In this document: piece by piece, positions 1 to 15,514 of the stretch
How positions within the stretch are numbered: the first letter of the stretch is position 1
Layout of the letters: every line of letters begins with the position of its first letter
Origin: an uncultured Bdellovibrionales bacterium
GTDB taxonomy: Bacteria > Patescibacteriota > Minisyncoccia > Moranbacterales > UBA1568
Reading direction: 5' to 3'
DNA length: 64,000 bases
Assembly (NCBI GenBank): GCA_964451495.1
Contig: CAYVHS010000005.1
Span: 8,926 to 72,925 of the forward strand
Made by a program: the position numbers and the translations under genes
The notes under the pieces: model-generated
Told to the model about the DNA's origin: nothing
Databases searched by the model: none
The model's input: only the letters and a program-made list of their open reading frames with translations

Positions 1-127
1 ATATTTTCTCAAGGACAAAACCTTCTGCCGCCTGATGAAGTATGTCCCGAAGGAGATAGCCGATATTTGCCTCCTCGTTATAAGCAGGGATTCCTACGGA
101 GAGTGTTTTTGAGTGAGCGGTATGCAT
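1..127 (-). CDS. Glycosyltransferase family 2, N-terminal fragment (gene continues beyond the left edge)
   Basis: ATG at 127 on the minus strand; translation MHTAHSKTLSVGIPAYNEEANIGYLLRDILHQAAEGFVLEKI matches the typical start of a GT2 Rossmann fold (IP-YNEE). Only 42 codons are visible. Confidence 0.45.
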   Translation of the reverse strand, partial: MHTAHSKTLSVGIPAYNEEANIGYLLRDILHQAAEGFVLEKI

Positions 128-136
128 GACAAAAAG

Positions 137-3100
137 TTACTCAGCCTGATTAATCACATGCAAAAATTCTTTGCTACTTTTATCCCAACTAAAGTTTTCA
201 GCCCAAATGCGCGCCTCCTTACTCAGCTCTTCGCGTAAACTCCTATCACGGATAATGAGCGATATTTTTTCCGCAAATCCTTTCGTATCGCCATATTCTA
301 CGAGGTAGCCCGTATCAGCATCTTTCACCGAATCACGCAGTCCTGGGATGTCAGACGCGACTACCGGTGTACCACAAGCATTTGCCTCAATAACAACAAT
401 CCCCCAACCTTCCATAAATGATGGGTTCGCGAGCACCCAAGCGCTTTGGAGAAGTCGGAGTTTCTCCGCTTCATCCACTTTACCAAGAAAGTGGATTTTG
501 TCCGAGTTGAAGCCCAGATCACGAGCAAGGCGTTTGAGATAGTTTTCTTCATCCCCGCCTCCGGCAATCAGCAGTCTGGCGTCTGGACGTTCTTTCACGA
601 CCAAGTGGAATGCTCGGATCAACACATCGACTGATTTATATGCTTTGAGTCGACCGAGATATAGCACCGTTGGCGTTATACTCTTTTCACCACGCACCAG
701 CTCATGGAGGTGTACTCCTGGATGAACTATTTCGATGCCGGCCGATCCGATACCAAGGGCTTTCATCTCTAGCTCGCTTGAACGAGAAACCGTAATAAAC
801 TTTACGCGCTTGTAAATAATTGGCATCAGCCCCTTTTCGAGAAAGCCTGCGAGGAGCGCTAGTGGTTTGATGAGAGAATGACGAAATACCTCCTGGTGAA
901 CATGGTGCATCAGGCAGTATACCGGTTCCTTGACATACAAAGGCGCAAAAAATGGAATACCATTTTCACAATCAATAACCAAATCGTACCGCCCACGGAA
1001 ACGAACCATATAGTACAAGAAAGCCCAAACATAAACCAAATAAAATCCGCCCCGTCGTATAATATTGATACCGTCAATGGTTTCATACCGCTTCTGTAGA
1101 CCATCATTCCCACAAAAGATTGTCACCTGGTTACCATCGGCGACCCATGTCTTGGCAATCTCGTGTACATAAAGCTCCGCTCCGCCCGCGTAGAGGTGTT
1201 TCAGATCACGCCAGTTAAAAATAAGAATGCGTTTACCGGTTGTGAGTGGCGCCGTGGTGTTCGGAAAACCATTATAAAAAATCCCTATGAAATCACGAAA
1301 TCCTCGCTCAAGAAAAGGGAATTGACGTTCCAAGAAGTGCAACACCGCAAAGGAGAGAAAAATACCCAGGCTCACGAAAAAGACAACATTCACAACAGTA
1401 CCCAGAGAGTCATGATGCATCCAAACACTCCAAATAAGTGCCAGCGAACCAAATATAGATACGAGAGAAAAAAGATATCGTCGCTTGGCTAAGTGATAAA
1501 GAGCAATGACATTTCCTAGTGTAAACAAGGCAATACCAGAGGTATAGAGGAGAAGCCATGGAGTAACTGCCCTTGCTTTTTCACCCAAAAGAATTGGGGT
1601 TACATAATGTCCCAATACACCAAGGAGAGTAACGCCGATACTGACGAGTACAAAAACACTGACAAAGATAGAATCGAAGATTTTCTGTGAACTCTGACGC
1701 AAACCTTCCTTTTGACTCACCAGCGTAATCATAAATACCGTTGGGAGCGATCCGAGGAAATAAATCATTTTCCCAATCAAAGAAAGGAGCGCGTACTGAC
1801 CAGCGGTTGTCTCATCAAAAAAGTGTTTAACGAGGAGTATATCAGCACTCAAAAAAACAACAGCTGAGATACTTGTCAAAATAGCAGAAAAGAAAAACTT
1901 ACCAGGAAAAGCCACTCCAGTTCCCGCCTGTTTGGACCCCCCTATCAAAGCGGCTCGTTTTGGAACAAACACCCAGCCAATACTAGCAGAAACGAGCAGA
2001 GAAAGTGGAATAACCGCGTACATCCACTCAGACCATTGGAAGAAAAAGAAGACCACTGCCAAGCCCATCTTTGCCAGAGTTTCGGTCATATTAATCATGG
2101 CTACAGCAGCGAAGCGCAGATTTCCGAGAAGGTATCCCTGATAACTTGATGTCATCAATCCAAAGACGAGCGCTCCGGTAAAAATGAGAAATACTAGATT
2201 ATCATTGACCCGGAAAAACTTCTCCAGAAATGGGGCTGCTACCACCCAACCCATAGACAAGAATAAGACCGTAAGAATTCCATTCTGAAAAGCAAAAACG
2301 AAAAATCTATTGGCGACATGCTGCCCTTTACGAGCGCTCAAAAAAACCGTCTGATGATTGACTGTTGATCCAAAAGCTCCAAAGAAGATACCCGCAATGT
2401 ACCAAAGCGTATTTATGAGAGTCACCAATGCCAACTGAGAGAAGGAAAGGACGTAACCAAGAAAGGCATTAAAGAGAAAATTAACAAAATTTGATAGCAC
2501 AAAAACAATCATCAACACTCCTTTTCCTGAAAAGATAAAATCTATCCACAGAACGGGAAATACTTTCTGCAGCGTTTCTTTGAGAGCAAAGATTTGACTT
2601 TCTGCAAGTAGCTTTTTATTCGCCGCTACTGTTTCTTCATTCTTTTTTGGAATAGCCTTTTTCACATGAAGCCCATGGAGAGTCTTTTCCCAGTAGTGTG
2701 GATTTCTAATGAGCTGGTAGAGTCCGATGAAGGCTGCCCAACTGACGAGGAACCAATAAAACGGCACCAGGAAAACGTACTTCACCACCTGGAAATGTTC
2801 GCGCTTGGCCGTCCCAATCATGTAGTAATAGAGATAGAGGAAGTTGCCGAAAATGAGTGAAAGGGCAGCAAAGTAAAAAACCAGTGGTGGGAAAAGCGCC
2901 TCGAGAGTCGGTCCGACAATGATATAGAGTGTAAAGTACGAAAGCGTGGCCAACCAGAGAAATGGATTGATAAACATGAACCCGATCTTGCCACCGACCA
3001 CCAGCTGGAAAATAAGCGCATGCCATCCGTTCTCACGCACAAAAGTGACCGGGTGACGCATGTGCACGAGATATGTCTGCATGTAGCCCTTGATCCAGCG

Positions 3101-4819
3101 CGAGCGTTGACGAATCCAATTCTTCACATCACTGTTTGCTTCTTCGAGCGTCACCGAATCGATAATAGCCGTCCGGAATCCACGCTTGAAGATACGAGCG
3201 CCGAGATCGCAATCCTCCGTCACATTAAATGGATCCCAGCCTTCTAGCTCCAAAAGATCACGGGTGCGGAAATGATTACTCGTACCACCGAGCGGAATCG
3301 AGGTATTGATGGACTGGAGTCCAGGCAAAATGACATCAAACCAGAGCGAGTACTCGGCTGTAAAAAGCCGTGTGAGTAAATTCTGGTGGGGATTGAAATA
3401 GTTGAGCTTGGCCTGCAGACAACGAACCGAGGGATGCGAATTTTGAAATCCCAAATACGCCTTTTTCAACTGGGACGGCTCCGGGATATCTTCGGCATCA
3501 TAAATGACGACATACTCCCCGCTCGCAAAAGAGAGTCCGTAGTTACAGGCTTTCGGTTTAGTCTTGGGCATGGAGTGGGGCACCACGAGGATTCGGAAAT
3601 AGCCGGGTAGATCCATAGCTCGAGCAGCAGCAATCGTTTCAGGATCATTTTCCTCGAGCAGCAGCAGGACGTCGAGCTTGGTCTTTGGCCAGTCGAGTGC
3701 CTGCATGGCGGCTACGAAAGTAGGGAGCATATGTGCTTCCTTGTAAAGTGGGCAGAGTACAGAATAGACCGGCAGTAGTTGTTCATCGATGGCCACTAAC
3801 TCTTCGTCAGTACTCGAGAGTTCTGGCGGTGTCTTCAAACTCTTCATCACGAGAAAGAGATTGAAGAGAGCGTCGATGAAATAGATAGCCGTGAGGATAG
3901 CCACAATCAAGATGCCAGTATGAAGTGGGCTGACTATGAGTCCTATCAGAATGAAGAAAAATACTCCCCAAATGAGGTTGCGTTGCCAGGGAGCAAACGT
4001 ACGAAGAGCCGAGATGTGGTGATGGAGCGTTGTGTGTGTCACAAAGCGCTGTCTATTGTGGGCGATACCAGCCCCTACCATCGAGTCACCATGTTCCGGT
4101 TTGATAACAAATGGAGTGTGGCCTTGCCACTTGAGTCGCAGCGCACTCCACCCTATTTCAAACAGGGCGCGAAATGGGTTTAGCTTGGAGACACCAGCCT
4201 GACGTTCGGCAAACGTGATGTCTACCGAGTCGATGACGTAACCATAGTTACGAGCAGATAAGAGGAACTCCATGTCAAAAGTCCACGGTGTCGGGTGAAG
4301 AGTTACCTCACGAAGAATTTTTTTGCGGAACACCTTGAGACCAGACTGGCTGTCACAGTGGAGGTCATGGAGCAAACGAGTAAAAACGAGGGTAAATGTT
4401 TTGCTCAAAAGCCTGCGGAGCCAGTTGGTATCGTGTTCTCTGCGATTAGCCACTACAATGTCTGCTCCCTGTGCAAGACGGTCGAGCATCCCAGGGAGTG
4501 CTTCGGGCGGATACTGGAGATCGGCATCAATCATGGCCACCACGTCAAACCGCGCCAACGCAAATCCTTTGATAAGTGATTGGGCTTTGCCCCGATTTCC
4601 ATCCTTCAGATGACAAATGATGCGAAACGTATCGGCGTACTCGATCGCGAGCGAAGCAATCCGTTCCCGCGTCGCATCAGTAGAATGATCATCAATGAAA
4701 AGGAGCTCTCCTGTAAGTGAGCGCTCTCTGAACACGCGCGCGAGGCGCTTTACCAAAGACTCAACATTCCCCTCTTCGTTGAGTGTCGGGATGACAATAG
4801 AAACTTGATTTTCTGACAT
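137..4819 (-). CDS. Giant multi-domain polysaccharide synthase. In order: GT2 (DPM1-like, aa ~6-240), a second GT2 of processive/cellulose-synthase type with DAED and QRSRW motifs (aa ~350-650), a ~12-14-helix polytopic membrane module resembling a Wzx/MOP flippase (aa ~650-1190), and a C-terminal GT4/GT-B domain with the EX7E motif (aa ~1195-1560)
   Basis: Uninterrupted 1560-aa ORF. Motifs read directly from the translation: VSIVIPTLNEEGNV...DDHSTD...DADLQ (GT2); YDAEDIP...QRSRWIKG (processive GT2); a long hydrophobic multi-helix block; EGWGIVVIEANACGTPVVASD (GT4). Confidence 0.8.
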   Translation of the reverse strand: MSENQVSIVIPTLNEEGNVESLVKRLARVFRERSLTGELLFIDDHSTDATRERIASLAIEYADTFRIICHLKDGNRGKAQSLIKGFALARFDVVAMIDADLQYPPEALPGMLDRLAQGADIVVANRREHDTNWLRRLLSKTFTLVFTRLLHDLHCDSQSGLKVFRKKILREVTLHPTPWTFDMEFLLSARNYGYVIDSVDITFAERQAGVSKLNPFRALFEIGWSALRLKWQGHTPFVIKPEHGDSMVGAGIAHNRQRFVTHTTLHHHISALRTFAPWQRNLIWGVFFFILIGLIVSPLHTGILIVAILTAIYFIDALFNLFLVMKSLKTPPELSSTDEELVAIDEQLLPVYSVLCPLYKEAHMLPTFVAAMQALDWPKTKLDVLLLLEENDPETIAAARAMDLPGYFRILVVPHSMPKTKPKACNYGLSFASGEYVVIYDAEDIPEPSQLKKAYLGFQNSHPSVRCLQAKLNYFNPHQNLLTRLFTAEYSLWFDVILPGLQSINTSIPLGGTSNHFRTRDLLELEGWDPFNVTEDCDLGARIFKRGFRTAIIDSVTLEEANSDVKNWIRQRSRWIKGYMQTYLVHMRHPVTFVRENGWHALIFQLVVGGKIGFMFINPFLWLATLSYFTLYIIVGPTLEALFPPLVFYFAALSLIFGNFLYLYYYMIGTAKREHFQVVKYVFLVPFYWFLVSWAAFIGLYQLIRNPHYWEKTLHGLHVKKAIPKKNEETVAANKKLLAESQIFALKETLQKVFPVLWIDFIFSGKGVLMIVFVLSNFVNFLFNAFLGYVLSFSQLALVTLINTLWYIAGIFFGAFGSTVNHQTVFLSARKGQHVANRFFVFAFQNGILTVLFLSMGWVVAAPFLEKFFRVNDNLVFLIFTGALVFGLMTSSYQGYLLGNLRFAAVAMINMTETLAKMGLAVVFFFFQWSEWMYAVIPLSLLVSASIGWVFVPKRAALIGGSKQAGTGVAFPGKFFFSAILTSISAVVFLSADILLVKHFFDETTAGQYALLSLIGKMIYFLGSLPTVFMITLVSQKEGLRQSSQKIFDSIFVSVFVLVSIGVTLLGVLGHYVTPILLGEKARAVTPWLLLYTSGIALFTLGNVIALYHLAKRRYLFSLVSIFGSLALIWSVWMHHDSLGTVVNVVFFVSLGIFLSFAVLHFLERQFPFLERGFRDFIGIFYNGFPNTTAPLTTGKRILIFNWRDLKHLYAGGAELYVHEIAKTWVADGNQVTIFCGNDGLQKRYETIDGINIIRRGGFYLVYVWAFLYYMVRFRGRYDLVIDCENGIPFFAPLYVKEPVYCLMHHVHQEVFRHSLIKPLALLAGFLEKGLMPIIYKRVKFITVSRSSELEMKALGIGSAGIEIVHPGVHLHELVRGEKSITPTVLYLGRLKAYKSVDVLIRAFHLVVKERPDARLLIAGGGDEENYLKRLARDLGFNSDKIHFLGKVDEAEKLRLLQSAWVLANPSFMEGWGIVVIEANACGTPVVASDIPGLRDSVKDADTGYLVEYGDTKGFAEKISLIIRDRSLREELSKEARIWAENFSWDKSSKEFLHVINQAE

Positions 4820-5059
4820 AACAACCAGCGTGCCATACTTATGTTAATCCACCCTCCGGAAACCAAGATGTTTCACCCGAAAGACAAGAATTTACCGTAC
4901 CGAAAAATGGCACAATTGTCAAGCATTTGTTGTCTCGACAGAAGAATAACTCTGTATAGGTCCCTTAGATACCAAACGTACCCTTGCGAAAGCATTCGTA
5001 GGGCCTTTTTGGCTCAAAATGGAAATAGGAAGTACGTACTACAAGCAGAAGTACGATGG

Positions 5060-5923
5060 CTATTTCTCCAAGAATTCCCCCAGCGCCTCTGTATAGGGAC
5101 GCAGGGCGATGCATTTGGTATTGATGAGTGCCGACGAGTGCGGACGCTTGGCTTTACGAGGAAACGTATCAGCCGAGACGGGTTTCACAATGGCCTCTCT
5201 CTCTGCGAGCCTGAACAGCTCTTGTGCGGCCCCGTACCATGTCGCAACACCTTCATTGGGTAGATGATAGATACCGTATTCTCTCCCCTCTTGCTCGAGC
5301 ACCTTGGTTGCCAATGCGAGATCTGGTGCATACGTGAAACAGCTTTTTTCATCATCGACGACGGTCACTTCTTTTTTATCCTCTGCCACTTCGAGCATCT
5401 TCTCGAAAAAGCTCTTTTTACCCAGAGCCGATGTCGCTGACTTCCCAAACAATTTCGAGAGGCGAATGACATAGTATTTCCCATCGACTGCTATCACTCG
5501 CTTTTCCCCTTCCCATTTGCTCATGCCATACCGAGACAGTGGGCGCGGCTCGGCATCTTCGGTATAACCACTCTCGCTTGCTCCATCAAACACATAGTCA
5601 GTGGAGTAGTGCACCAGTGTCGCATCCATCTCTTTGGCGAGTTGTGCGAGAAATCCTGGTACTTCGGTATTGAGCATCTTGGCTTTGGCATATTCATCCT
5701 CGCTTTCCTCGCACTGATCGACAGCATTGTACGCCACGGCATTCACGATGAGCGCCGGAGCACACTCGCGGATCTTCTTTTCAGCCGCTACGAAATCCGT
5801 CACATCGATATCCTCGAAGTCCCAACCTGTCACTTCATATTCATCGTCCTCGCTATAGACGCGCACGAGCTCCTGTCCGAGCATGCCCCGAGCTCCGAGT
5901 ATCAGCACTTTCTTTTTCTCCAT
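5060..5923 (-). CDS. rfbD: dTDP-4-dehydrorhamnose reductase
   Basis: 287 aa; MEKKKVLILGARGMLGQEL Rossmann N-terminus; RmlD-like length and motifs. Confidence 0.85.
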   Translation of the reverse strand: MEKKKVLILGARGMLGQELVRVYSEDDEYEVTGWDFEDIDVTDFVAAEKKIRECAPALIVNAVAYNAVDQCEESEDEYAKAKMLNTEVPGFLAQLAKEMDATLVHYSTDYVFDGASESGYTEDAEPRPLSRYGMSKWEGEKRVIAVDGKYYVIRLSKLFGKSATSALGKKSFFEKMLEVAEDKKEVTVVDDEKSCFTYAPDLALATKVLEQEGREYGIYHLPNEGVATWYGAAQELFRLAEREAIVKPVSADTFPRKAKRPHSSALINTKCIALRPYTEALGEFLEK

Positions 5924-6057: not shown

Positions 6058-6945
6058 TTAGTCCAGATTCACCTCGACTCTTCCCTGTTGAAAAGCGCAC
6101 AGCATATACTGACGCCACTTGGGATCAAGCACTGCAAATGCAGCGAAAAAATGTTGCAGGCTCTGGCGAGTACGTCGATACTGTGCACCGAGCGACAAAG
6201 GATTGCCATAGCCAAAGCTGATTTCTCTATCGAGGAATACGCGTCCGTCTCTCTTCATCCCCTCATTATCAACGAAAGAGAATTTGATATGCGCCGTATA
6301 GGGATGCCCAGCTGGTTCAGGCAAATGAGAATGGGTGATACTTTGTCTCGGTAGCAATGCGGGCAATACCGCTACATCACCTGGTGAACGTACATCCATG
6401 GTATTCGATACCTGGGTCTTTCTCCTCCTGGAAAAACCAAACAAAACACCGAGTGTCGAAACACAAGCCAACGAGCCCGTAGAGCCCGCCACCAATACGA
6501 GATAACCAATCATTTCTTCTTTGGCTGCGAGTTCGCGAGCCATGATATCGTAGCGCTCATTATGAGCCTTCGCACTGTCCTGCGCAGCTACGATCGCTAC
6601 TGATACCTGGCCGATACGATCAGTCACTTGGTCGATACCGATCGCTATTTCATCTTTGGCGACTGGCGGCGGTACCGATGGTGCATCGGCTATATCGAGC
6701 AACAATGGCCCAACCGGTAATAGACGGGCATCACTAATACCGTTTCTAGCAAGAATGCGCTCGCGTATCGACCGCAACGTAACCGGTTCAGCATAATACC
6801 GCTCATGAATTTTCCAGGCCGTATCTCCTGGTTTCACGGTATACACAATGGTCTCCGCCCGTACGGGCGATGACAGCAGATATGCCGCCACAATGAACAG
6901 CAGTATACCGCAAAGCAGGGTCTCGAAACGATGTACAGAGGTCAT
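6058..6945 (-). CDS. LysM-domain membrane protein (signal anchor, LysM, coiled coil, a second TM, C-terminal domain of unknown function)
   Basis: TIVYTVKPGDTAWKIHERYY is LysM-like; two hydrophobic helices; strong RBS AAGGAG 7 nt upstream of ATG 6945. Confidence 0.6.
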   Translation of the reverse strand: MTSVHRFETLLCGILLFIVAAYLLSSPVRAETIVYTVKPGDTAWKIHERYYAEPVTLRSIRERILARNGISDARLLPVGPLLLDIADAPSVPPPVAKDEIAIGIDQVTDRIGQVSVAIVAAQDSAKAHNERYDIMARELAAKEEMIGYLVLVAGSTGSLACVSTLGVLFGFSRRRKTQVSNTMDVRSPGDVAVLPALLPRQSITHSHLPEPAGHPYTAHIKFSFVDNEGMKRDGRVFLDREISFGYGNPLSLGAQYRRTRQSLQHFFAAFAVLDPKWRQYMLCAFQQGRVEVNLD

Positions 6946-7339: not shown

Positions 7340-7963
7340 TCACTTGATTCCAAACTTTTTCTTTAAGACCTCATCTCCATCGAGATGTTCAGTCACGATA
7401 TAGAGCATTTCCTTTCCAATCTTATACTGCGCCTTAAGAAGTTCTACTACTTTGTCACATTCATACGGATACACCCACACACTATCTTGCAGTCTGAGGA
7501 ATCCAAAAGAAAGCATATCACCCCTTGCGCGGTCGCGAGCGAATCTGCGCTTTTCTTCGATGTCAAAAATAAGCAATCGCCATTTACCATCCCATCGCCA
7601 CTTCTTCAGACGCTTCTCTTTCAATTGATAACGGAGAAGTTCTCGCTGACCCTTCTCGGTAAGCCGGACAACTTCCTCATCATTCTGCTCAAAGACATAT
7701 ACTAATCCCTGACGATGCAGCTTTTGTATTGTCTTGCTAACATAGGCTGGCGTTCTATATCGCCTATCGTTCTTCTTGAAGACACGAAGTATCTGCACCA
7801 CATTGGGAGCTGCTACTGCCAAAGCTATTAGCCCAGCCGCGCCCACAATCCCAAGTATCGCCATACTCACAGCGCCACGATCCAATCGTACTGATTTCTT
7901 TTTTGGCTTTCGCTCAGATGCCTCTTGTTTTTGAGTTTTTTTCTTCTGAACTTCCTCACTCAT
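7340..7963 (-). CDS. Membrane-anchored PaaX-like winged-helix transcriptional regulator
   Basis: Lys-rich N-terminus, one TM helix, a winged-helix-like segment, then KKWRWDGKWRLLIFDIEEKRRFARDRARGDMLSFGFLRLQDSVWVYPYE, which matches the PaaX C-terminal (Cas2-like fold) signature W-DG-W-LV-FDIPE. Confidence 0.5.
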   Translation of the reverse strand: MSEEVQKKKTQKQEASERKPKKKSVRLDRGAVSMAILGIVGAAGLIALAVAAPNVVQILRVFKKNDRRYRTPAYVSKTIQKLHRQGLVYVFEQNDEEVVRLTEKGQRELLRYQLKEKRLKKWRWDGKWRLLIFDIEEKRRFARDRARGDMLSFGFLRLQDSVWVYPYECDKVVELLKAQYKIGKEMLYIVTEHLDGDEVLKKKFGIK

Positions 7964-8080: not shown

Positions 8081-8744
8081 TCATTTTTTCTGTTTCTCTA
8101 ATTTCAAAAAATCACCCTCGCTGATGACTTCAATTTCTCCATCGATTATCTTGAGAGCCGATGAATCATCCAGCGCATATACTGCGTGAGGAAACTTCTC
8201 GGCAAGCGATCGAATAAGTGGTGTCCTAAGATGAGCGAAATAATCAGAGTTGAGGTGCGGAAGAATAGAGAAATCAAAAATACCGAGACCTTTCTCATTC
8301 CCTTCAAATACTTCTTCAGGAATAAGGTCCTTCATCGAGTCCTGAGAAAGCAGCTTCCCGACAACCATGCTCCCGGCACTGATACCCATAAACTCGCGTC
8401 TTGAGAAGTTCCGGCAATACACTCATGACACCACTCTCCCGCATCGTCTTAGCTAAATATTGTTCATCACCACCGCCGAAACAAAGAAGCTCTGCGGTTT
8501 CAAATCGTTTAAACCAATTCTCATTCGGCACCGCAGCAATATCGACAATATCAACCGACTTAAAACCACGATCCAGAAAATCATTCAAGTTATCTACAAG
8601 CCAGCCTTTGTCGCCAGCAATACAACTAGCCGCAGTCGGAACAAAAGCAACCGATATTTCATTTGTTGGTTTTCCAATCAATGCCAACAGCGCTTTTTCA
8701 ATAGACGCATTTCGTACGCCAGCTGAAGTGAGAAGAAATTTCAT
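8081..8744 (-). pseudogene. Peptidase E (S51, dipeptidase E family) interrupted by a +1/-1 frameshift near 8385-8397
   Basis: Upstream frame gives MKFLLTSAGVRN...ELLKTRVY and then runs into a stop. The downstream frame continues with ...MGISAGSMVVGKLL, the catalytic GxSAG nucleophile elbow, through to the C-terminus. The two ORFs, 8316..8822 and 8081..8422, overlap. Confidence 0.6.
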
Positions 8745-8755
8745 AAAAAGAATAA

Positions 8756-9760
8756 TTATCGTTTCTCGTACTGTTTCTCGTAATATTTCTGGTACGCGCC
8801 AGACTTCACGTTTTTCCACCACGTCTCATTTTTCTGGTACCACGCCACGGTCTGAGCCAGCCCCTCTAACAAAGAAACTGATGGCTGCCAACCGAGCTCG
8901 TTTTTGATCTTGGAATAGTCGATAGCATAACGACGGTCATGTCCCGCACGATCTTTCACATACTCGATAGCGCTTTCATCCTTGCCGAGGAGCACGAGGA
9001 GTTGCTTGACGATCCAAATATTCTCTCGTTCGCCGTCTCCTCCGACACAGTAGGTCTCGCCGATCCTGCCCCGATGGATGATTGCATCGATAGCACTACA
9101 GTGATCCTTCACATGGAGCCAATCACGCACCTGAGCACCATCGCCATAGACCGGTACCGATTTGCCCTCAAGGATATTGGTGATAGCGAGCGGGATGAGC
9201 TTTTCCGGAAAATGATAAGGCCCGTAGTTATTGGAGCAATTGGAAAGAGTGACAGGGAGTCCGTAGGTATGGAAATACGCCCGTACCAAATGATCCGAGC
9301 TCGCCTTGGATGCGCTGTACGGGCTCCGCGGGTCATACGGAGTATGCTCGTCAAACGGAGCATCATCCGGTGCCAATGCACCAAACACTTCGTCCGTCGA
9401 TACATGATGGAAACGCCGACCATACTTGCGAGCTGCTTCGAGGAGCACATGTGTCCCACGGACATTGGTCTCGAGGAAAATGCCTGGGTCCATGATAGAG
9501 CGATCCACATGAGACTCGGCCGCAAAATGCACCACAATATCGCACTCATCTACGAGTGGCTCGACTACTCCTATATCAGTAATACTCCCCCGGACGAAAC
9601 GATACCGAGGATCATCTTGCCACTGTGCCAGATTTTCCAAATTTCCCGCATACGTCAAAGCATCCAGATTGACTACCTCATACCCTGGATATGCCTTCAA
9701 GATGTGACGGATGAAATTGGATCCGATAAACCCCGCTCCGCCCGTGACTAAGAGTTTCAT
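8756..9760 (-). CDS. rfbB: dTDP-glucose 4,6-dehydratase
   Basis: 334 aa; MKLLVTGGAGFIGSNFIRH; canonical RmlB. Confidence 0.9.
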   Translation of the reverse strand: MKLLVTGGAGFIGSNFIRHILKAYPGYEVVNLDALTYAGNLENLAQWQDDPRYRFVRGSITDIGVVEPLVDECDIVVHFAAESHVDRSIMDPGIFLETNVRGTHVLLEAARKYGRRFHHVSTDEVFGALAPDDAPFDEHTPYDPRSPYSASKASSDHLVRAYFHTYGLPVTLSNCSNNYGPYHFPEKLIPLAITNILEGKSVPVYGDGAQVRDWLHVKDHCSAIDAIIHRGRIGETYCVGGDGERENIWIVKQLLVLLGKDESAIEYVKDRAGHDRRYAIDYSKIKNELGWQPSVSLLEGLAQTVAWYQKNETWWKNVKSGAYQKYYEKQYEKR

Positions 9761-9769
9761 AGAAAGTAT

Positions 9770-10321
9770 TTAATAGTAAAATTCTTGGGGAATGTCTTGG
9801 AGGAGCGGCTGTGCAGCATCCTTTTCTGACACCATCGGCTCTGCCATACCCCAATCGATACCCACATGAGGATCATCAAATCGGATTCCTCTCTCATGCT
9901 CTTTGGAATACACGTTGGTGCACTTATACGAAAAAAGAGTATCGTCTTCGAGAGCGATAAACCCATGAGCAAATCCAACGGGGATGAAAAACTGTTTCTT
10001 GTTTTCTCCCGAAAGTTCGACCGCTACATGCTGACCGAAAGTAGGTGACCCCGAGCGGATGTCGACGGCAACATCGATAACCCTGCCCCGCACAACCTGC
10101 ACCAATTTCCCTTGGGCAAATGGCGGAGCCTGATAATGGAGTCCGCGCACGACTCCTTTTTTGGAGCAAGATATATTGTCCTGAACAAAACATATATCAC
10201 TTCCGAGTAACTCTTGATACCGCTTCTCTTGAAATGTTTCCATGAAAAACCCTCGCTCATCTGCGAAAACATCCGGAGAGATGATAACCACGCCTTCCAG
10301 AAGCGTCTTTTCAATATGCAT
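9770..10321 (-). CDS. rfbC: dTDP-4-dehydrorhamnose 3,5-epimerase
   Basis: MHIEKTLLEGVVIISPDVFADERGFFMETF is the RmlC cupin. The start is placed at the ATG at 10321; the ORF track extends upstream to 10420. Confidence 0.85.
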   Translation of the reverse strand: MHIEKTLLEGVVIISPDVFADERGFFMETFQEKRYQELLGSDICFVQDNISCSKKGVVRGLHYQAPPFAQGKLVQVVRGRVIDVAVDIRSGSPTFGQHVAVELSGENKKQFFIPVGFAHGFIALEDDTLFSYKCTNVYSKEHERGIRFDDPHVGIDWGMAEPMVSEKDAAQPLLQDIPQEFYY

Positions 10322-10376
10322 AATTTCTTTTTTAATCGACGATATTCCAAAGGTGAATACTTCTATTTTAAAATAT

Positions 10377-10417
10377 CGCAGCCGTAAAAGCAAAAGCCGC
10401 CCCTTTTCGGGACGGCT
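10377..10417. terminator. Rho-independent terminator (bidirectional hairpin GCCGCCCC-TTTTC-GGGACGGC flanked by A/T runs) downstream of the KH-domain gene
   Basis: 8-bp GC-rich stem, 5-nt loop, T-run on the minus strand (plus AAAAGCAAAA) and a TTTTT on the plus side. Confidence 0.55.
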
Positions 10418-10432
10418 CAAAATTTTTCAGGA

Positions 10433-14536: not shown

Positions 14537-15514
14537 TTACGAGAGCTTCTCTATGATACGAAGCTTGGCACTTCTGGCACGTGGGTTTGTGTGTCTTTCC
14601 TGCTCACTCGGAACAATCGGTTTTCTCGTAATCAGCCTGATAGTAGGAGTCTGCTCACAACGACACACGGGGAAATTGGGCGGGCAAATACATCCTTGCG
14701 ATGCATCACGGAAGAACTGTTTCACGATACGATCCTCTCCCGAGTGAAACGTGATAACCGCCAACCGGCCACCGACATTCAAACATTTCACTGCCTGAGA
14801 AAGAAACGTCACCAGATGCTCTCCTTCCTGATTGACAGCGATACGAAGAGCTTGGAATGTCTTGGTCGCAGGATGGATCTTCAATCGATAACGCTTGCCT
14901 CTGGGATACACCCGCTCGATCAGCGCTGCCAAATCGTGAGTAGTCCGGAAAGGCTTGTTCTCTCGCTCAGTGACAATCGCTTCCGCGATACGCCTCGCTT
15001 CTGATTCTTCTCCATATTTGTAGAGGAACTGCTCAATCTCTTTCTCGGTACATGTATTCACTATCTTTTCTGCTGTCAGGTCGGTAGTTTGATCAAGACG
15101 CATATCGAGTGGTCCGTCTTTCTGAAAACTGAACCCTCGCTCTCCATCTTCGATCTGATCCGAAGAAAATCCGAGATCAGCGAGGATAGCATCGACATGC
15201 TCACTACCAGCATCTCCGAGCATTTCGACTATTGCTGAATAATTACCATGTACGAGAGCCAAAGATGTATCTGTAAGCGCTTGCTTGAGAAAGACATCTG
15301 ACTGTGCACGGATTTCAAACCGATTGAGAGCTTGCGTATCGGCATCGATAGCCACGAGCTTGCCTCCTGGCAAAATATGCTCGAGCAGAGCTCGTGTATG
15401 CCCCCCACCCCCAAGGGTCGCATCCACGACTACCATGCCTGGACGAAGCGAGAGCCCTTCCACTACTTCTTTCAAAAGAACTGATGCATGTTTCGTCTCT
15501 GTCATAATCTTCAT
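14537..15514 (-). CDS. rsmH: 16S rRNA (cytosine1402-N4)-methyltransferase
   Basis: 325 aa; VVVDATLGGGGHTRALLE SAM motif; canonical MraW. Confidence 0.9.
   Translation of the reverse strand: MKIMTETKHASVLLKEVVEGLSLRPGMVVVDATLGGGGHTRALLEHILPGGKLVAIDADTQALNRFEIRAQSDVFLKQALTDTSLALVHGNYSAIVEMLGDAGSEHVDAILADLGFSSDQIEDGERGFSFQKDGPLDMRLDQTTDLTAEKIVNTCTEKEIEQFLYKYGEESEARRIAEAIVTERENKPFRTTHDLAALIERVYPRGKRYRLKIHPATKTFQALRIAVNQEGEHLVTFLSQAVKCLNVGGRLAVITFHSGEDRIVKQFFRDASQGCICPPNFPVCRCEQTPTIRLITRKPIVPSEQERHTNPRARSAKLRIIEKLS

Follow-up and report, generated by a model that had tools for sequence, protein, structure and literature searches.

A four-module open reading frame

The stretch of DNA analyzed here (the window, 64,000 nucleotides of contig CAYVHS010000005.1, positions 8,926 to 72,925) carries close to its first position, on the minus strand, one large open reading frame (ORF) for a protein of 1,560 amino acids (aa). 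This protein joins two glycosyltransferases of family GT2, a membrane transporter and a glycosyltransferase of family GT4. The parts of the ORF, from the N terminus to the C terminus, and the gene that follows it are listed below, with the evidence for each in brackets.

137..4819, minus strand: four-module ORF, 1,560 aa, ATG start, no internal stops
4115..4819, minus strand, aa 1 to 235: module 1, GT2 with GT-A fold, GtrB/ArnC/DPMS type (Pfam, PDB matches, Foldseek)
3824..4114, minus strand, aa 236 to 332: beta-hairpin motif and two-helix transmembrane hairpin between the GT2 modules (AlphaFold 2 [AF2], conserved columns)
3026..3823, minus strand, aa 333 to 598: module 2, catalytic part, membrane GT2 of BcsA/HAS/PgaC type (Pfam, BcsA alignment, Foldseek)
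2672..3025, minus strand, aa 599 to 716: module 2, membrane part (AF2 secondary structure, invariant columns)
2528..2671, minus strand, aa 717 to 764: lysine-rich, variable cytoplasmic linker from synthase to transporter (pLDDT below 50 at aa 738 to 760)
1268..2527, minus strand, aa 765 to 1184: module 3, 12-helix transporter of the MOP superfamily (Wzx/PST-like), both termini inside (AF2, Foldseek)
137..1267, minus strand, aa 1185 to 1560 and stop codon: module 4, GT4 with GT-B fold (Pfam Glyco_transf_4 and Glycos_transf_1)
1..127, minus strand: next operon gene, a GT2 of about 300 aa cut by the window edge, with its start at 127, 9 nt past the ORF stop

Pfam profiles matched the ORF at aa 7 to 171 (Glycos_transf_2, 4e-26), aa 352 to 638 (Glyco_tranf_2_3 and Glyco_trans_2_3, 2e-22 and 5e-21), aa 1212 to 1371 (Glyco_transf_4) and aa 1382 to 1538 (Glycos_transf_1, 6e-43). 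No curated equivalog model of NCBIfam reached its cut-off for any module, all matches falling far below. A search of 5.8 billion clustered proteins retrieved 1,383 matches to the 1,560-aa protein. Among the best 120 of these, 116 have a length of at least 1,500 aa, align over about 100% of the query with 50 to 83% identity and carry the same Pfam set; these are the full-length orthologues to which the motif counts below refer. They lie on independent contigs, some of them in genomes of 1.0 to 1.1 Mb that are closed or nearly so, such as CP064974.1 (Moraniibacteriota), and their sources, where named, are Moranbacteria, Niyogibacteria, Falkowbacteria, Parcubacteria or the "Patescibacteria group." The catalytic motifs of all three transferase modules are retained in 104 to 116 of the 116, the linkers that join the modules are conserved, and the reading frame is consistent.

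An earlier note on this DNA had described a single uninterrupted polypeptide in the order GT2, GT2 with a QRSRW motif, polytopic block and GT4, and had called for a search for orthologous fusions in relatives and for a chimeric assembly to be excluded. The uninterrupted frame was recovered at 137..4819, and Pfam, AF2 and Foldseek agree with the order. Because more than 110 full-length orthologues of 50 to 83% identity occur on independent contigs, the comparison of sequences across genomes confirms a genuine fusion and, for practical purposes, excludes a chimera. Between window positions 1000 and 2500 the GC content falls to 0.42 to 0.44 and the AT skew rises to +0.27 to 0.31. This shift falls on the hydrophobic transporter module, with its T-rich coding strand, and thus marks neither a junction nor foreign DNA.

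Modules of the fused protein

Module 1 is, as judged from its sequence and model, a GT2 of the polyprenyl-phosphate glycosyltransferase type, predicted to transfer a sugar onto polyprenyl monophosphate, which implies a monophosphate-linked lipid sugar. A search of PDB sequences gave as best solved relatives the Pyrococcus dolichol-phosphate-mannose synthase (DPMS; 5mlz, 1e-25), ArnC (7e-18) and GtrB, with an alignment that reaches DPMS residue 258. In the AF2 model of aa 1 to 760 (pLDDT of 89.5 and pTM of 0.85), Foldseek placed the module at a root mean square deviation (RMSD) of 2.9 to 3.1 Å from DPMS and ArnC (5mlz and 9asc) and also matched GtrB. The DxD motif (DAD, aa 98 to 100) is retained in 104 of the 116 orthologues, and a CDSQSG motif occupies aa 155 to 160. 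The equivalog models for ArnC, PgfS and AglJ (the last at 1.8e-20) all remain below cut-off. As in DPMS, ArnC and GtrB, the GT-A domain is followed in the AF2 model by an interface helix (aa 215 to 232) and then by membrane helices (aa 277 to 296 and 298 to 329). The description of this module in the earlier note as an initiating GT2 therefore stands as regards the family, but the enzyme is no generic initiator, being specifically of the polyprenyl-phosphate type.

A motif that is near-invariant in the alignment, SMxGAGxAH..RFxTHTTLHHxxSA (aa 247 to 274; window positions 3998 to 4081, minus strand), lies after the first GT2 and ahead of the membrane helices and forms a beta-hairpin in the AF2 model. 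We know of no counterpart of this motif in GtrB, ArnC or DPMS.

Module 2 resembles the processive membrane synthases BcsA, hyaluronan synthase (HAS) and PgaC. It carries DAED (aa 441 to 444), PLGGTSNHF (aa 509 to 517), TED (aa 534 to 536) and QRSRW (aa 571 to 575), of which DAED, TED and QRSRW align residue by residue with the corresponding motifs of BcsA. The QRSRW-bearing second GT2 that had been pointed out in this ORF is thus of the synthase type by Pfam and by the BcsA alignment. The motifs are present in all 116 full-length orthologues, and this is the most conserved module of the protein, with 53 to 90% identity across loci and dozens of invariant residues. Foldseek aligned it with BcsA (9b8v_E and 5ej1) over 440 columns, membrane helices included, at an RMSD of 5.1 to 5.7, and also with hyaluronan synthases including that of Chlorella virus (CvHAS). 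The CelA and PgaC models score 79 bits against a cut-off of 699 and 44 bits against a cut-off of 422, respectively. The membrane helices are only two on the N-terminal side and three to four on the C-terminal side, the latter spanning aa 599 to 630, 632 to 642 (short), 645 to 672 and 682 to 705 in the AF2 model. A basic loop at aa 670 to 681 is a possible gating loop, and the module closes with the conserved motif NPHYWEKTLHGLH (W.KT.H).

The block from about aa 745 to 1200 has no sequence match in Pfam (E ≤ 10), NCBIfam or PDB sequences. Its AF2 model (pLDDT of 92.1 and pTM of 0.89) consists of 12 long helices and aligns in Foldseek with the lipid III flippase WzxE (9g95 and 9g9o; TM scores of 0.72 to 0.79 over 421 to 426 columns), with MurJ (0.70 to 0.73) and with MATE transporters. 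A stand-alone relative, P0121 (37% identical), scores 43.3 bits with Polysacc_synt_3 against a cut-off of 23 and also passes Polysacc_synt, and PF01943 is listed in the precomputed Pfam sets of a minority of the best 120 matches. Module 3 is thus a transporter of the MOP/Wzx fold, and this fold, together with the operon context, suggests that it flips a glycan linked to polyprenyl phosphate or diphosphate. The block had been described as flippase-like with 12 to 14 transmembrane helices, and its transporter-like nature had been left to be profiled; the transporter fold was found, but with 12 helices and not 14.

The topology of the protein can be read from its basic residues. The linker that leads into the transporter varies from 11 to 192 aa among the orthologues, is net basic, and has hydropathy maxima that stay below 1.6 except in two or three of them; the extra length of P0012, P0013, P0018, P0094 and P0097 (1,650 to 1,730 aa) is an expanded basic linker of up to about 190 aa. 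The lysines and arginines of the transporter cluster in the even-to-odd loops, a positive-inside pattern that places both of its termini in the cytoplasm. A basic linker without a clear transmembrane segment and the positive-inside loops together place all three catalytic domains in the cytoplasm. This predicted orientation is in agreement with what enzymes that use nucleotide sugars require.

Module 4 carries GGAE (aa 1212 to 1215) and the EX7E motif (EGWGIVVIE, aa 1470 to 1478), the latter retained in 112 of the 116 orthologues. Its nearest PDB sequences are PimA and PimB' (5e-21 and 6e-18), MshA and BshA, and NCBIfam gave weak matches to N-acetylglucosamine (GlcNAc)-phosphatidylglycerol synthase and monoglucosyldiacylglycerol (MGlcDAG) synthase. 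The PelF model matches at 1.6e-11, with 44 bits against a cut-off of 100.

Related loci and states of fusion

Scanning one genome per species yielded 31 related loci, from Levy-, Davies-, Woese-, Gottesman-, Ames- and Roizmanbacteria, Dojkabacteria and Parcubacteria-type genomes. Two of them (L030 and L031) are partial matches; the remaining 29 carry the modules in the same order, with fusion and fission varying. The states are given below, where GT2a and GT2b stand for modules 1 and 2, a hyphen for fusion within one protein, and "then" for a separate gene.

All four modules fused: L001, L003, L011, L019, L020, L024, L027, L029
GT2b-MOP-GT4: L009, L022, L023, L025, L028
GT2a, then GT2b-MOP-GT4: L014, L021
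GT2a-GT2b, then MOP-GT4: L008, L010, L016, L018
GT2b, then MOP-GT4: L013, L015
GT2b, then MOP: L007, L012

Other Patescibacteria thus carry the modules split over two or three neighboring genes. The transmembrane hairpin (aa 277 to 329) stays with GT2a in the split loci L014 and L021 and with GT2b in loci that lack GT2a (e.g., L009 and L022). Since it follows one or the other GT2 according to the locus, the two enzymes seem to make use of a single hairpin. Of 149 representatives of the transporter family, 37 are MOP-GT4, the fusion that occurs most often, and others join the transporter to a cytoplasmic GT2, a GNAT domain or a kinase. The frequency of MOP-GT4 and MOP-GT2 fusions is in keeping with a flippase that is coupled to those enzymes by which its lipid-linked substrate is completed.

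The sources of L001 to L003, L006, L008, L010, L011, L015, L017, L018, L025, L028, L029 and L031 are metagenome-assembled genomes (MAGs) labeled "uncultured Bdellovibrionales," "Gammaproteobacteria" or "Pseudomonadales." Most of these carry the same operon as named Patescibacteria, L001 being the closest relative of the window, and the labels in this series of third-party annotation (TPA) MAGs look unreliable.

The downstream operon

Clustering of flanking ORFs showed that the four-module gene heads a same-strand operon of about 13 kb in 20 or more related loci. In L001 and L034 (83% identity), the core is followed by a GT2, a CE4 deacetylase, a methyltransferase, two GT4 proteins, two GT-C-like proteins and a protein with a CarboxypepD_reg domain; the GT2 at the window edge (MHTAHSKTLSVGIPAYNEEANIGYL...) matches positions 14708 to 15610 of L034. 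The middle of the operon is variable. It holds the GT2 of about 300 aa, a deacetylase of CE4 or PIG-L type, methyltransferases and GT4 proteins, to which some loci add a pyruvyl transferase, a DegT aminotransferase, GNAT proteins, kinases or an SDR protein. An accessory GT4 matches the Agl16 model at 7e-46, below the curated cut-off. An ArnD-like identity of the CE4 protein was considered and dropped, as NCBIfam gave PdaA, PgaB, NodB and HfsH and no Arn-type match.

The tail of the operon is conserved and lies on the same strand. A polytopic protein of about 500 to 560 aa is found in 20 of the 31 loci, a second one of about 530 to 580 aa in 22, and a CarboxypepD_reg protein of about 350 to 430 aa in 16. 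The two polytopic families are distant paralogues (hhalign E of 3e-5 over 327 columns). A match to PMT_2 or PMT, on which their designation as GT-C-like relies, occurs in 7 of 21 members of the longer family (best, 4.6e-8) and in 4 of 20 members of the shorter one (best, 5e-6).

The operon-final protein consists of an N-terminal membrane anchor, a domain of about 300 aa and the CarboxypepD_reg domain (L034, 22798 to 24054; L032, 23004 to 24278). The central domain has invariant E162, E164 and E261, and 3 of 13 members match Glyco_hydro_cc, of clan GH-A type, weakly (8e-4); a profile search against PDB sequences gave no useful match. These sequence features suggest that the protein may act outside the cytoplasm as a dedicated glycoside hydrolase. 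Synthase systems usually carry such a dedicated hydrolase, and a membrane-anchored, hydrolase-like protein at the end of the operon would fit a system of this kind; this is the weakest part of the model.

No priming enzyme of WecA or WbaP type was seen in the loci, which fits initiation by module 1 on polyprenyl monophosphate, and no ATP-binding cassette (ABC) exporter was seen in the operons. In L034, the operon-final protein is followed by an SdrD_B/SpaA-like adhesin. In CP064974.1 (L032, 7156 to 9818), the core gene has directly upstream, on the same strand, a gene for a 665-aa GT4-GT2 fusion and one for a PAP2_C protein, both of which may be members of the locus.

Upstream genes and a possible link to rhamnose

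The genes upstream of the ORF in the window are as follows.

5060-5923, minus strand: RmlD (dTDP-4-dehydrorhamnose reductase), immediately upstream of the ORF (Pfam RmlD_sub_bind, 2e-71)
6058-6945, minus strand: LysM protein, between rmlD and rmlB/rmlC, apparently unrelated to the glycan genes
7340-7963, minus strand: PaaX-like protein with a Cas2-like middle domain, likewise between rmlD and rmlB/rmlC and apparently unrelated to glycans
8081-8822, minus strand: Peptidase_S51 gene split into two overlapping frames (ORF 8316-8822, profile positions 2 to 114; ORF 8081-8422, positions 119 to 206)
8756-9760, minus strand: RmlB (Pfam GDP_Man_Dehyd/Epimerase)
9770-10420, minus strand: RmlC (Pfam dTDP_sugar_isom, 3e-73)

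The LysM, PaaX-like and S51-peptidase genes part RmlD from RmlB and RmlC; the split S51 gene, as its two frames indicate, is either a pseudogene with a frameshift or the result of a sequencing error. The presence of the rml genes and of an edge GT2 beside the ORF, on which the earlier note had built, is borne out, but the rhamnose-containing polymer that it had proposed is not. None of the 31 related loci has the window's rml genes beside the core (one has an RmlB-like epimerase of 26% identity), and the 83%-identical orthologue in L034 has copper-resistance genes upstream in their place. A search for RmlA-like motifs across the window found none. The rml neighborhood is thus local and not conserved, which makes the link to rhamnose weak. 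The adjacent genes may feed dTDP-rhamnose to one variable transferase in this organism, with rhamnose a non-defining component of the system.

A terminator-like hairpin lies at 4894 to 4916 on the minus strand, between rmlD and the ORF start. The scan for promoters and terminators did not exceed shuffled expectation and says little about cotranscription of rmlD. Coding sequence makes up about 90% of the window, and the minus strand holds 49 of its 62 long ORFs. Rfam at gathering score gave no family in the 64 kb, hence no tRNA or rRNA was detected.

A proposed assembly pathway and its alternatives

With a probability of roughly one half (0.5), judging from sequence, models and analogy, the ORF represents, in fused form, the core of a Patescibacteria-wide glycan-assembly locus that works by the following dual-chain mechanism. 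Module 1 would transfer a sugar from its nucleotide, probably an N-acetyl-hexosamine as the alternative CE4 or PIG-L deacetylases suggest, onto polyprenyl phosphate at the cytoplasmic face. Extension and modification of this monophosphate-linked intermediate would be the task of the GT4 module and of the accessory enzymes (transferases, deacetylase and methyltransferase). It would then be flipped by the MOP module, to which the finishing enzymes are tethered. Outside the cell, the two GT-C proteins would polymerize the intermediate and/or transfer it to an acceptor. Module 2, which always lies next to the MOP module, would polymerize a beta-linked backbone from a nucleotide sugar and thread it through its own membrane helices, and this backbone would be the most likely acceptor. 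The whole would be an assembly of two chains, like that of lactococcal rhamnan and pellicle, with a synthase in place of the ABC-transporter route. To our knowledge, no described system combines a synthase-dependent backbone with side-chain grafting by Wzx and GT-C proteins.

Several points weigh against this assignment of roles. We infer which sugars are donated, which lipid carries them, what is flipped and which acceptor finally receives the product. The assignment of the polytopic tail proteins to GT-C relies on weak Pfam matches in a minority of members, profile searches of both families against PDB sequences found nothing, and the remainder of the operon would lie beyond window position 1, so that the GT-C genes would fall outside the window. 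Module 1 is missing in L009, L022, L023, L025, L013, L015, L007 and L012, and hence it is not strictly needed in cis. AF2 gives three long helices after QRSRW, whereas the number of crossings there must be even because the linker that follows is cytoplasmic, and module 2 could alternatively be a lipid glycosyltransferase that exports nothing. Finally, no known system explains why a channel-forming synthase should be fused to a separate flippase.

The best surviving alternative, though an unlikely one, is a lipoglycan route resembling that of phosphatidylinositol mannosides, lipomannan and lipoarabinomannan (PIM/LM/LAM) or of glycosylphosphatidylinositol (GPI), in which the GT4 glycosylates a membrane phospholipid or diacylglycerol at the cytoplasmic face, the MOP module flips the glycolipid and module 1 merely supplies polyprenyl-phosphate-sugar donors with which the GT-C proteins lengthen the lipoglycan outside the cell. 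It draws on PimA and PimB' as the best solved relatives of module 4 and its weak matches to the GlcNAc-phosphatidylglycerol and MGlcDAG synthases, on the closeness of module 1 to DPMS, on PIG-L genes (the GlcNAc-phosphatidylinositol de-N-acetylase family) in several operons, on the PAP2_C gene, lipid phosphatase-like, directly upstream in CP064974.1, and on the PMT_2-like GT-C genes. The likeness of the GT4 is generic, however, as MshA and BshA score equally well or better and all matches are below cut-offs. MOP/Wzx proteins are known for polyprenyl-linked and not phospholipid-linked substrates, and the variable cytoplasmic transferases with pyruvyl and amino modifications are more typical of repeat-unit assembly on polyprenol.

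Protein glycosylation fares worse and is distinctly improbable. Here the polyprenyl-phosphate-linked sugar or oligosaccharide flipped by the MOP module would be placed by the GT-C proteins on surface proteins such as pilins, S-layer proteins or adhesins, as in actinobacterial Ppm1/Pmt O-mannosylation or in archaeal N-glycosylation initiated by AglJ, and the polymer of module 2 would be unrelated. PMT and PMT_2 are the families of protein mannosyltransferases and ArnT, module 1 matches AglJ and the accessory GT4 matches Agl16, and the operon ends with a membrane-anchored surface protein, followed in L034 by the adhesin-like protein. Against this, all the model matches lie below curated cut-offs, the operon-final protein is enzyme-like (the weak Glyco_hydro_cc match) and not substrate-like, and the invariant linkage of the flippase to a BcsA-type synthase, the most conserved module, is left unexplained.

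The earlier note had favored a self-contained synthase, a single polypeptide that initiates, elongates and exports a rhamnose-containing surface polymer. Three transferases and a transporter in one ORF speak for it, as do the same-strand rml genes upstream, with RmlD adjacent to the ORF and RmlB and RmlC no more than 6 kb away. The evidence for the operon contradicts the self-contained part: the next gene starts 9 nt away, relatives carry 6 to 10 more genes including two GT-C-like ones, and the modules are split elsewhere. The rhamnose part is opposed by the absence of rml genes beside every orthologue examined, the 83%-identical one included, by the lack of an RmlA-like motif in the window, by the hairpin between rmlD and the ORF, a weak indication, and by the lack of resemblance of any module to known rhamnosyltransferase models. 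There is little chance that this explanation holds.

Even less credit can be given to a Pel-like pair, in which MOP and GT4 would act as PelG and PelF, a cytoplasmic GT4 polymerase feeding the 12-helix exporter without a lipid carrier, and a second polymer would come from module 2. Within the transporter family, no fusion occurs more often than MOP-GT4, and the Pel system pairs the GT4 PelF with the MOP/PST-like PelG. The PelF match of module 4 is weak and far under its cut-off, neither the MOP module nor its relatives match the PelG model of Pfam, no PelD- or PelE-like genes are present in the loci, and module 1 and the two GT-C proteins would be without a role; on the PelF score and the missing PelG, PelD and PelE matches, the analogy was rejected. 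An artifact, that is, adjacent separate genes merged through a sequencing error or a chimeric contig, has a negligible probability even though some lineages do carry the modules separately, given the independent orthologues in closed genomes of about 1 Mb, the conserved linkers in consistent frame and a composition shift that follows the MOP module and marks no junction.

For the dual-chain reading, a further step is offered tentatively and with considerable doubt: one polypeptide may couple two export routes, a backbone through the synthase channel and Wzx-flipped side chains on polyprenyl phosphate that the flanking GT2 and GT4 domains start and complete, and may build with the GT-C enzymes a phylum-wide, possibly essential envelope heteroglycan. 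Patescibacteria (candidate phyla radiation, CPR) form a large share of bacterial diversity and live attached to other microbes, and their surface chemistry is hardly known. The locus shows conservation that reaches from Microgenomates and Dojkabacteria to Parcubacteria-type lineages, has an O-antigen-like layout and keeps its motifs intact in genomes of about 1 Mb, which together make it a strong candidate for producing the group's main envelope glycan and for a part in the strain-specific recognition of hosts. The fused form settles how the synthase-type GT2, the Wzx-type flippase and their partner enzymes are oriented relative to one another across the membrane and predicts that they form one complex. 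It is also a compact, single-gene target for expression, for structure determination and for defining a pathway that starts on polyprenyl monophosphate.

Comparison with known systems

The domain architecture had been thought undescribed, and this impression was sustained: no curated family and no publication were found for the four-module fusion or for the Patescibacteria locus, which is weak evidence as few subscription journals were reached. Hundreds of orthologues in databases are labeled just "glycosyltransferase."

The closest likeness is to the Wps system of Lactococcus lactis. In the lactococcal pellicle pathway, WpsA/B form C55-P-GlcNAc, WpsC to WpsF extend it and WpsG (Wzx) flips it, and WpsI and WpsJ (GT-C) polymerize the pellicle and attach it to a rhamnan that is made separately (PMC9574508). 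Likenesses to it are a predicted GtrB-type initiation on polyprenyl monophosphate with elongation by cytoplasmic glycosyltransferases, a 12-helix Wzx-type flippase, two putative GT-C proteins and a variable middle with conserved flanks, and the attachment of a side chain outside the cell to a separate backbone is proposed here as well. In Wps all proteins are separate, whereas here the initiator, the flippase and one elongating glycosyltransferase share one polypeptide, and the backbone candidate is a BcsA/HAS-type synthase in the same protein instead of a rhamnan that depends on an ABC transporter. There is no GacJ/WpsB-type activator here, because the module carries its own transmembrane hairpin, and no orthology with Wps is evident at the sequence level.

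The Gac and Gtr systems follow the simpler scheme of multi-component transmembrane glycosylation, in which a GtrB-type GT2 makes a polyprenyl-phosphate sugar, a flippase (of Wzx type in GacK) moves it and a GT-C enzyme uses it outside (PMC8035078). As in Streptococcus pyogenes GacI/GacJ-GacK-GacL and in GtrA/B/V, the locus encodes together a predicted GT-A polyprenyl-phosphate-sugar synthase, a flippase and putative GT-C proteins. A single sugar is added by those systems, whereas an oligosaccharide is suggested here by the GT4 and the accessory transferases; the present components are also fused, and the GT-C-like proteins are a pair of paralogues.

With BcsA (4hg6, 5ej1 and 9b8v), the HAS of Chlorella virus and Xenopus, and PgaC/IcaA, module 2 shares the GT-A motifs D, DxD, TED and QxxRW, and the structural likeness to BcsA seems to extend to the interface and flanking membrane helices over the 440-column alignment. 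Unlike BcsA and PgaC, the protein has no PilZ or cyclic di-GMP module, no BcsB, PgaD or IcaD partner was seen, and an MOP transporter lies at the C terminus. On its N-terminal side it also departs from BcsA and HAS, having no more than a two-helix hairpin that it shares with the GT2 before it.

The Arn pathway consists of the GT2 ArnC, the CE4 deformylase ArnD, the flippase ArnE/F and the PMT_2 GT-C enzyme ArnT. The present locus likewise brings together an ArnC-subfamily GT2 (7e-18, about 3 Å), a CE4 protein, a flippase and putative GT-C proteins of PMT_2 type (for the ArnC structure, see PMC12690121). Unlike in Arn, the flippase is of MOP type and not SMR-like, the CE4 protein is nearer to PdaA, PgaB and HfsH, and these organisms have no lipid A. 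The likeness to mycobacterial PIM/LM/LAM synthesis, through a GT4 nearest to PimA and PimB', a DPMS-like synthase and putative extracytoplasmic GT-C enzymes, is at the family level only, and that pathway lacks a known MOP flippase and a synthase-type GT2. Rhamnose-rich loci of the Rgp, Gac and Cwps kind differ in that the rml genes here occur in the window only and that their ABC exporter has no counterpart in the operons. The principle of an enzyme fused to the transporter of its product is shared with MprF and the PplT-glycosyltransferase fusion, whose flippase fold is unrelated and whose substrates are phospholipids (bioRxiv 10.1101/2022.03.11.483950).

Taken together, the kind of every module and the logic of the operon are known from these systems; what is new is the four-module fusion, the obligatory pairing of a BcsA/HAS-type synthase with a Wzx-type transporter, and its place as the conserved core of a Patescibacteria-wide locus with a variable middle.

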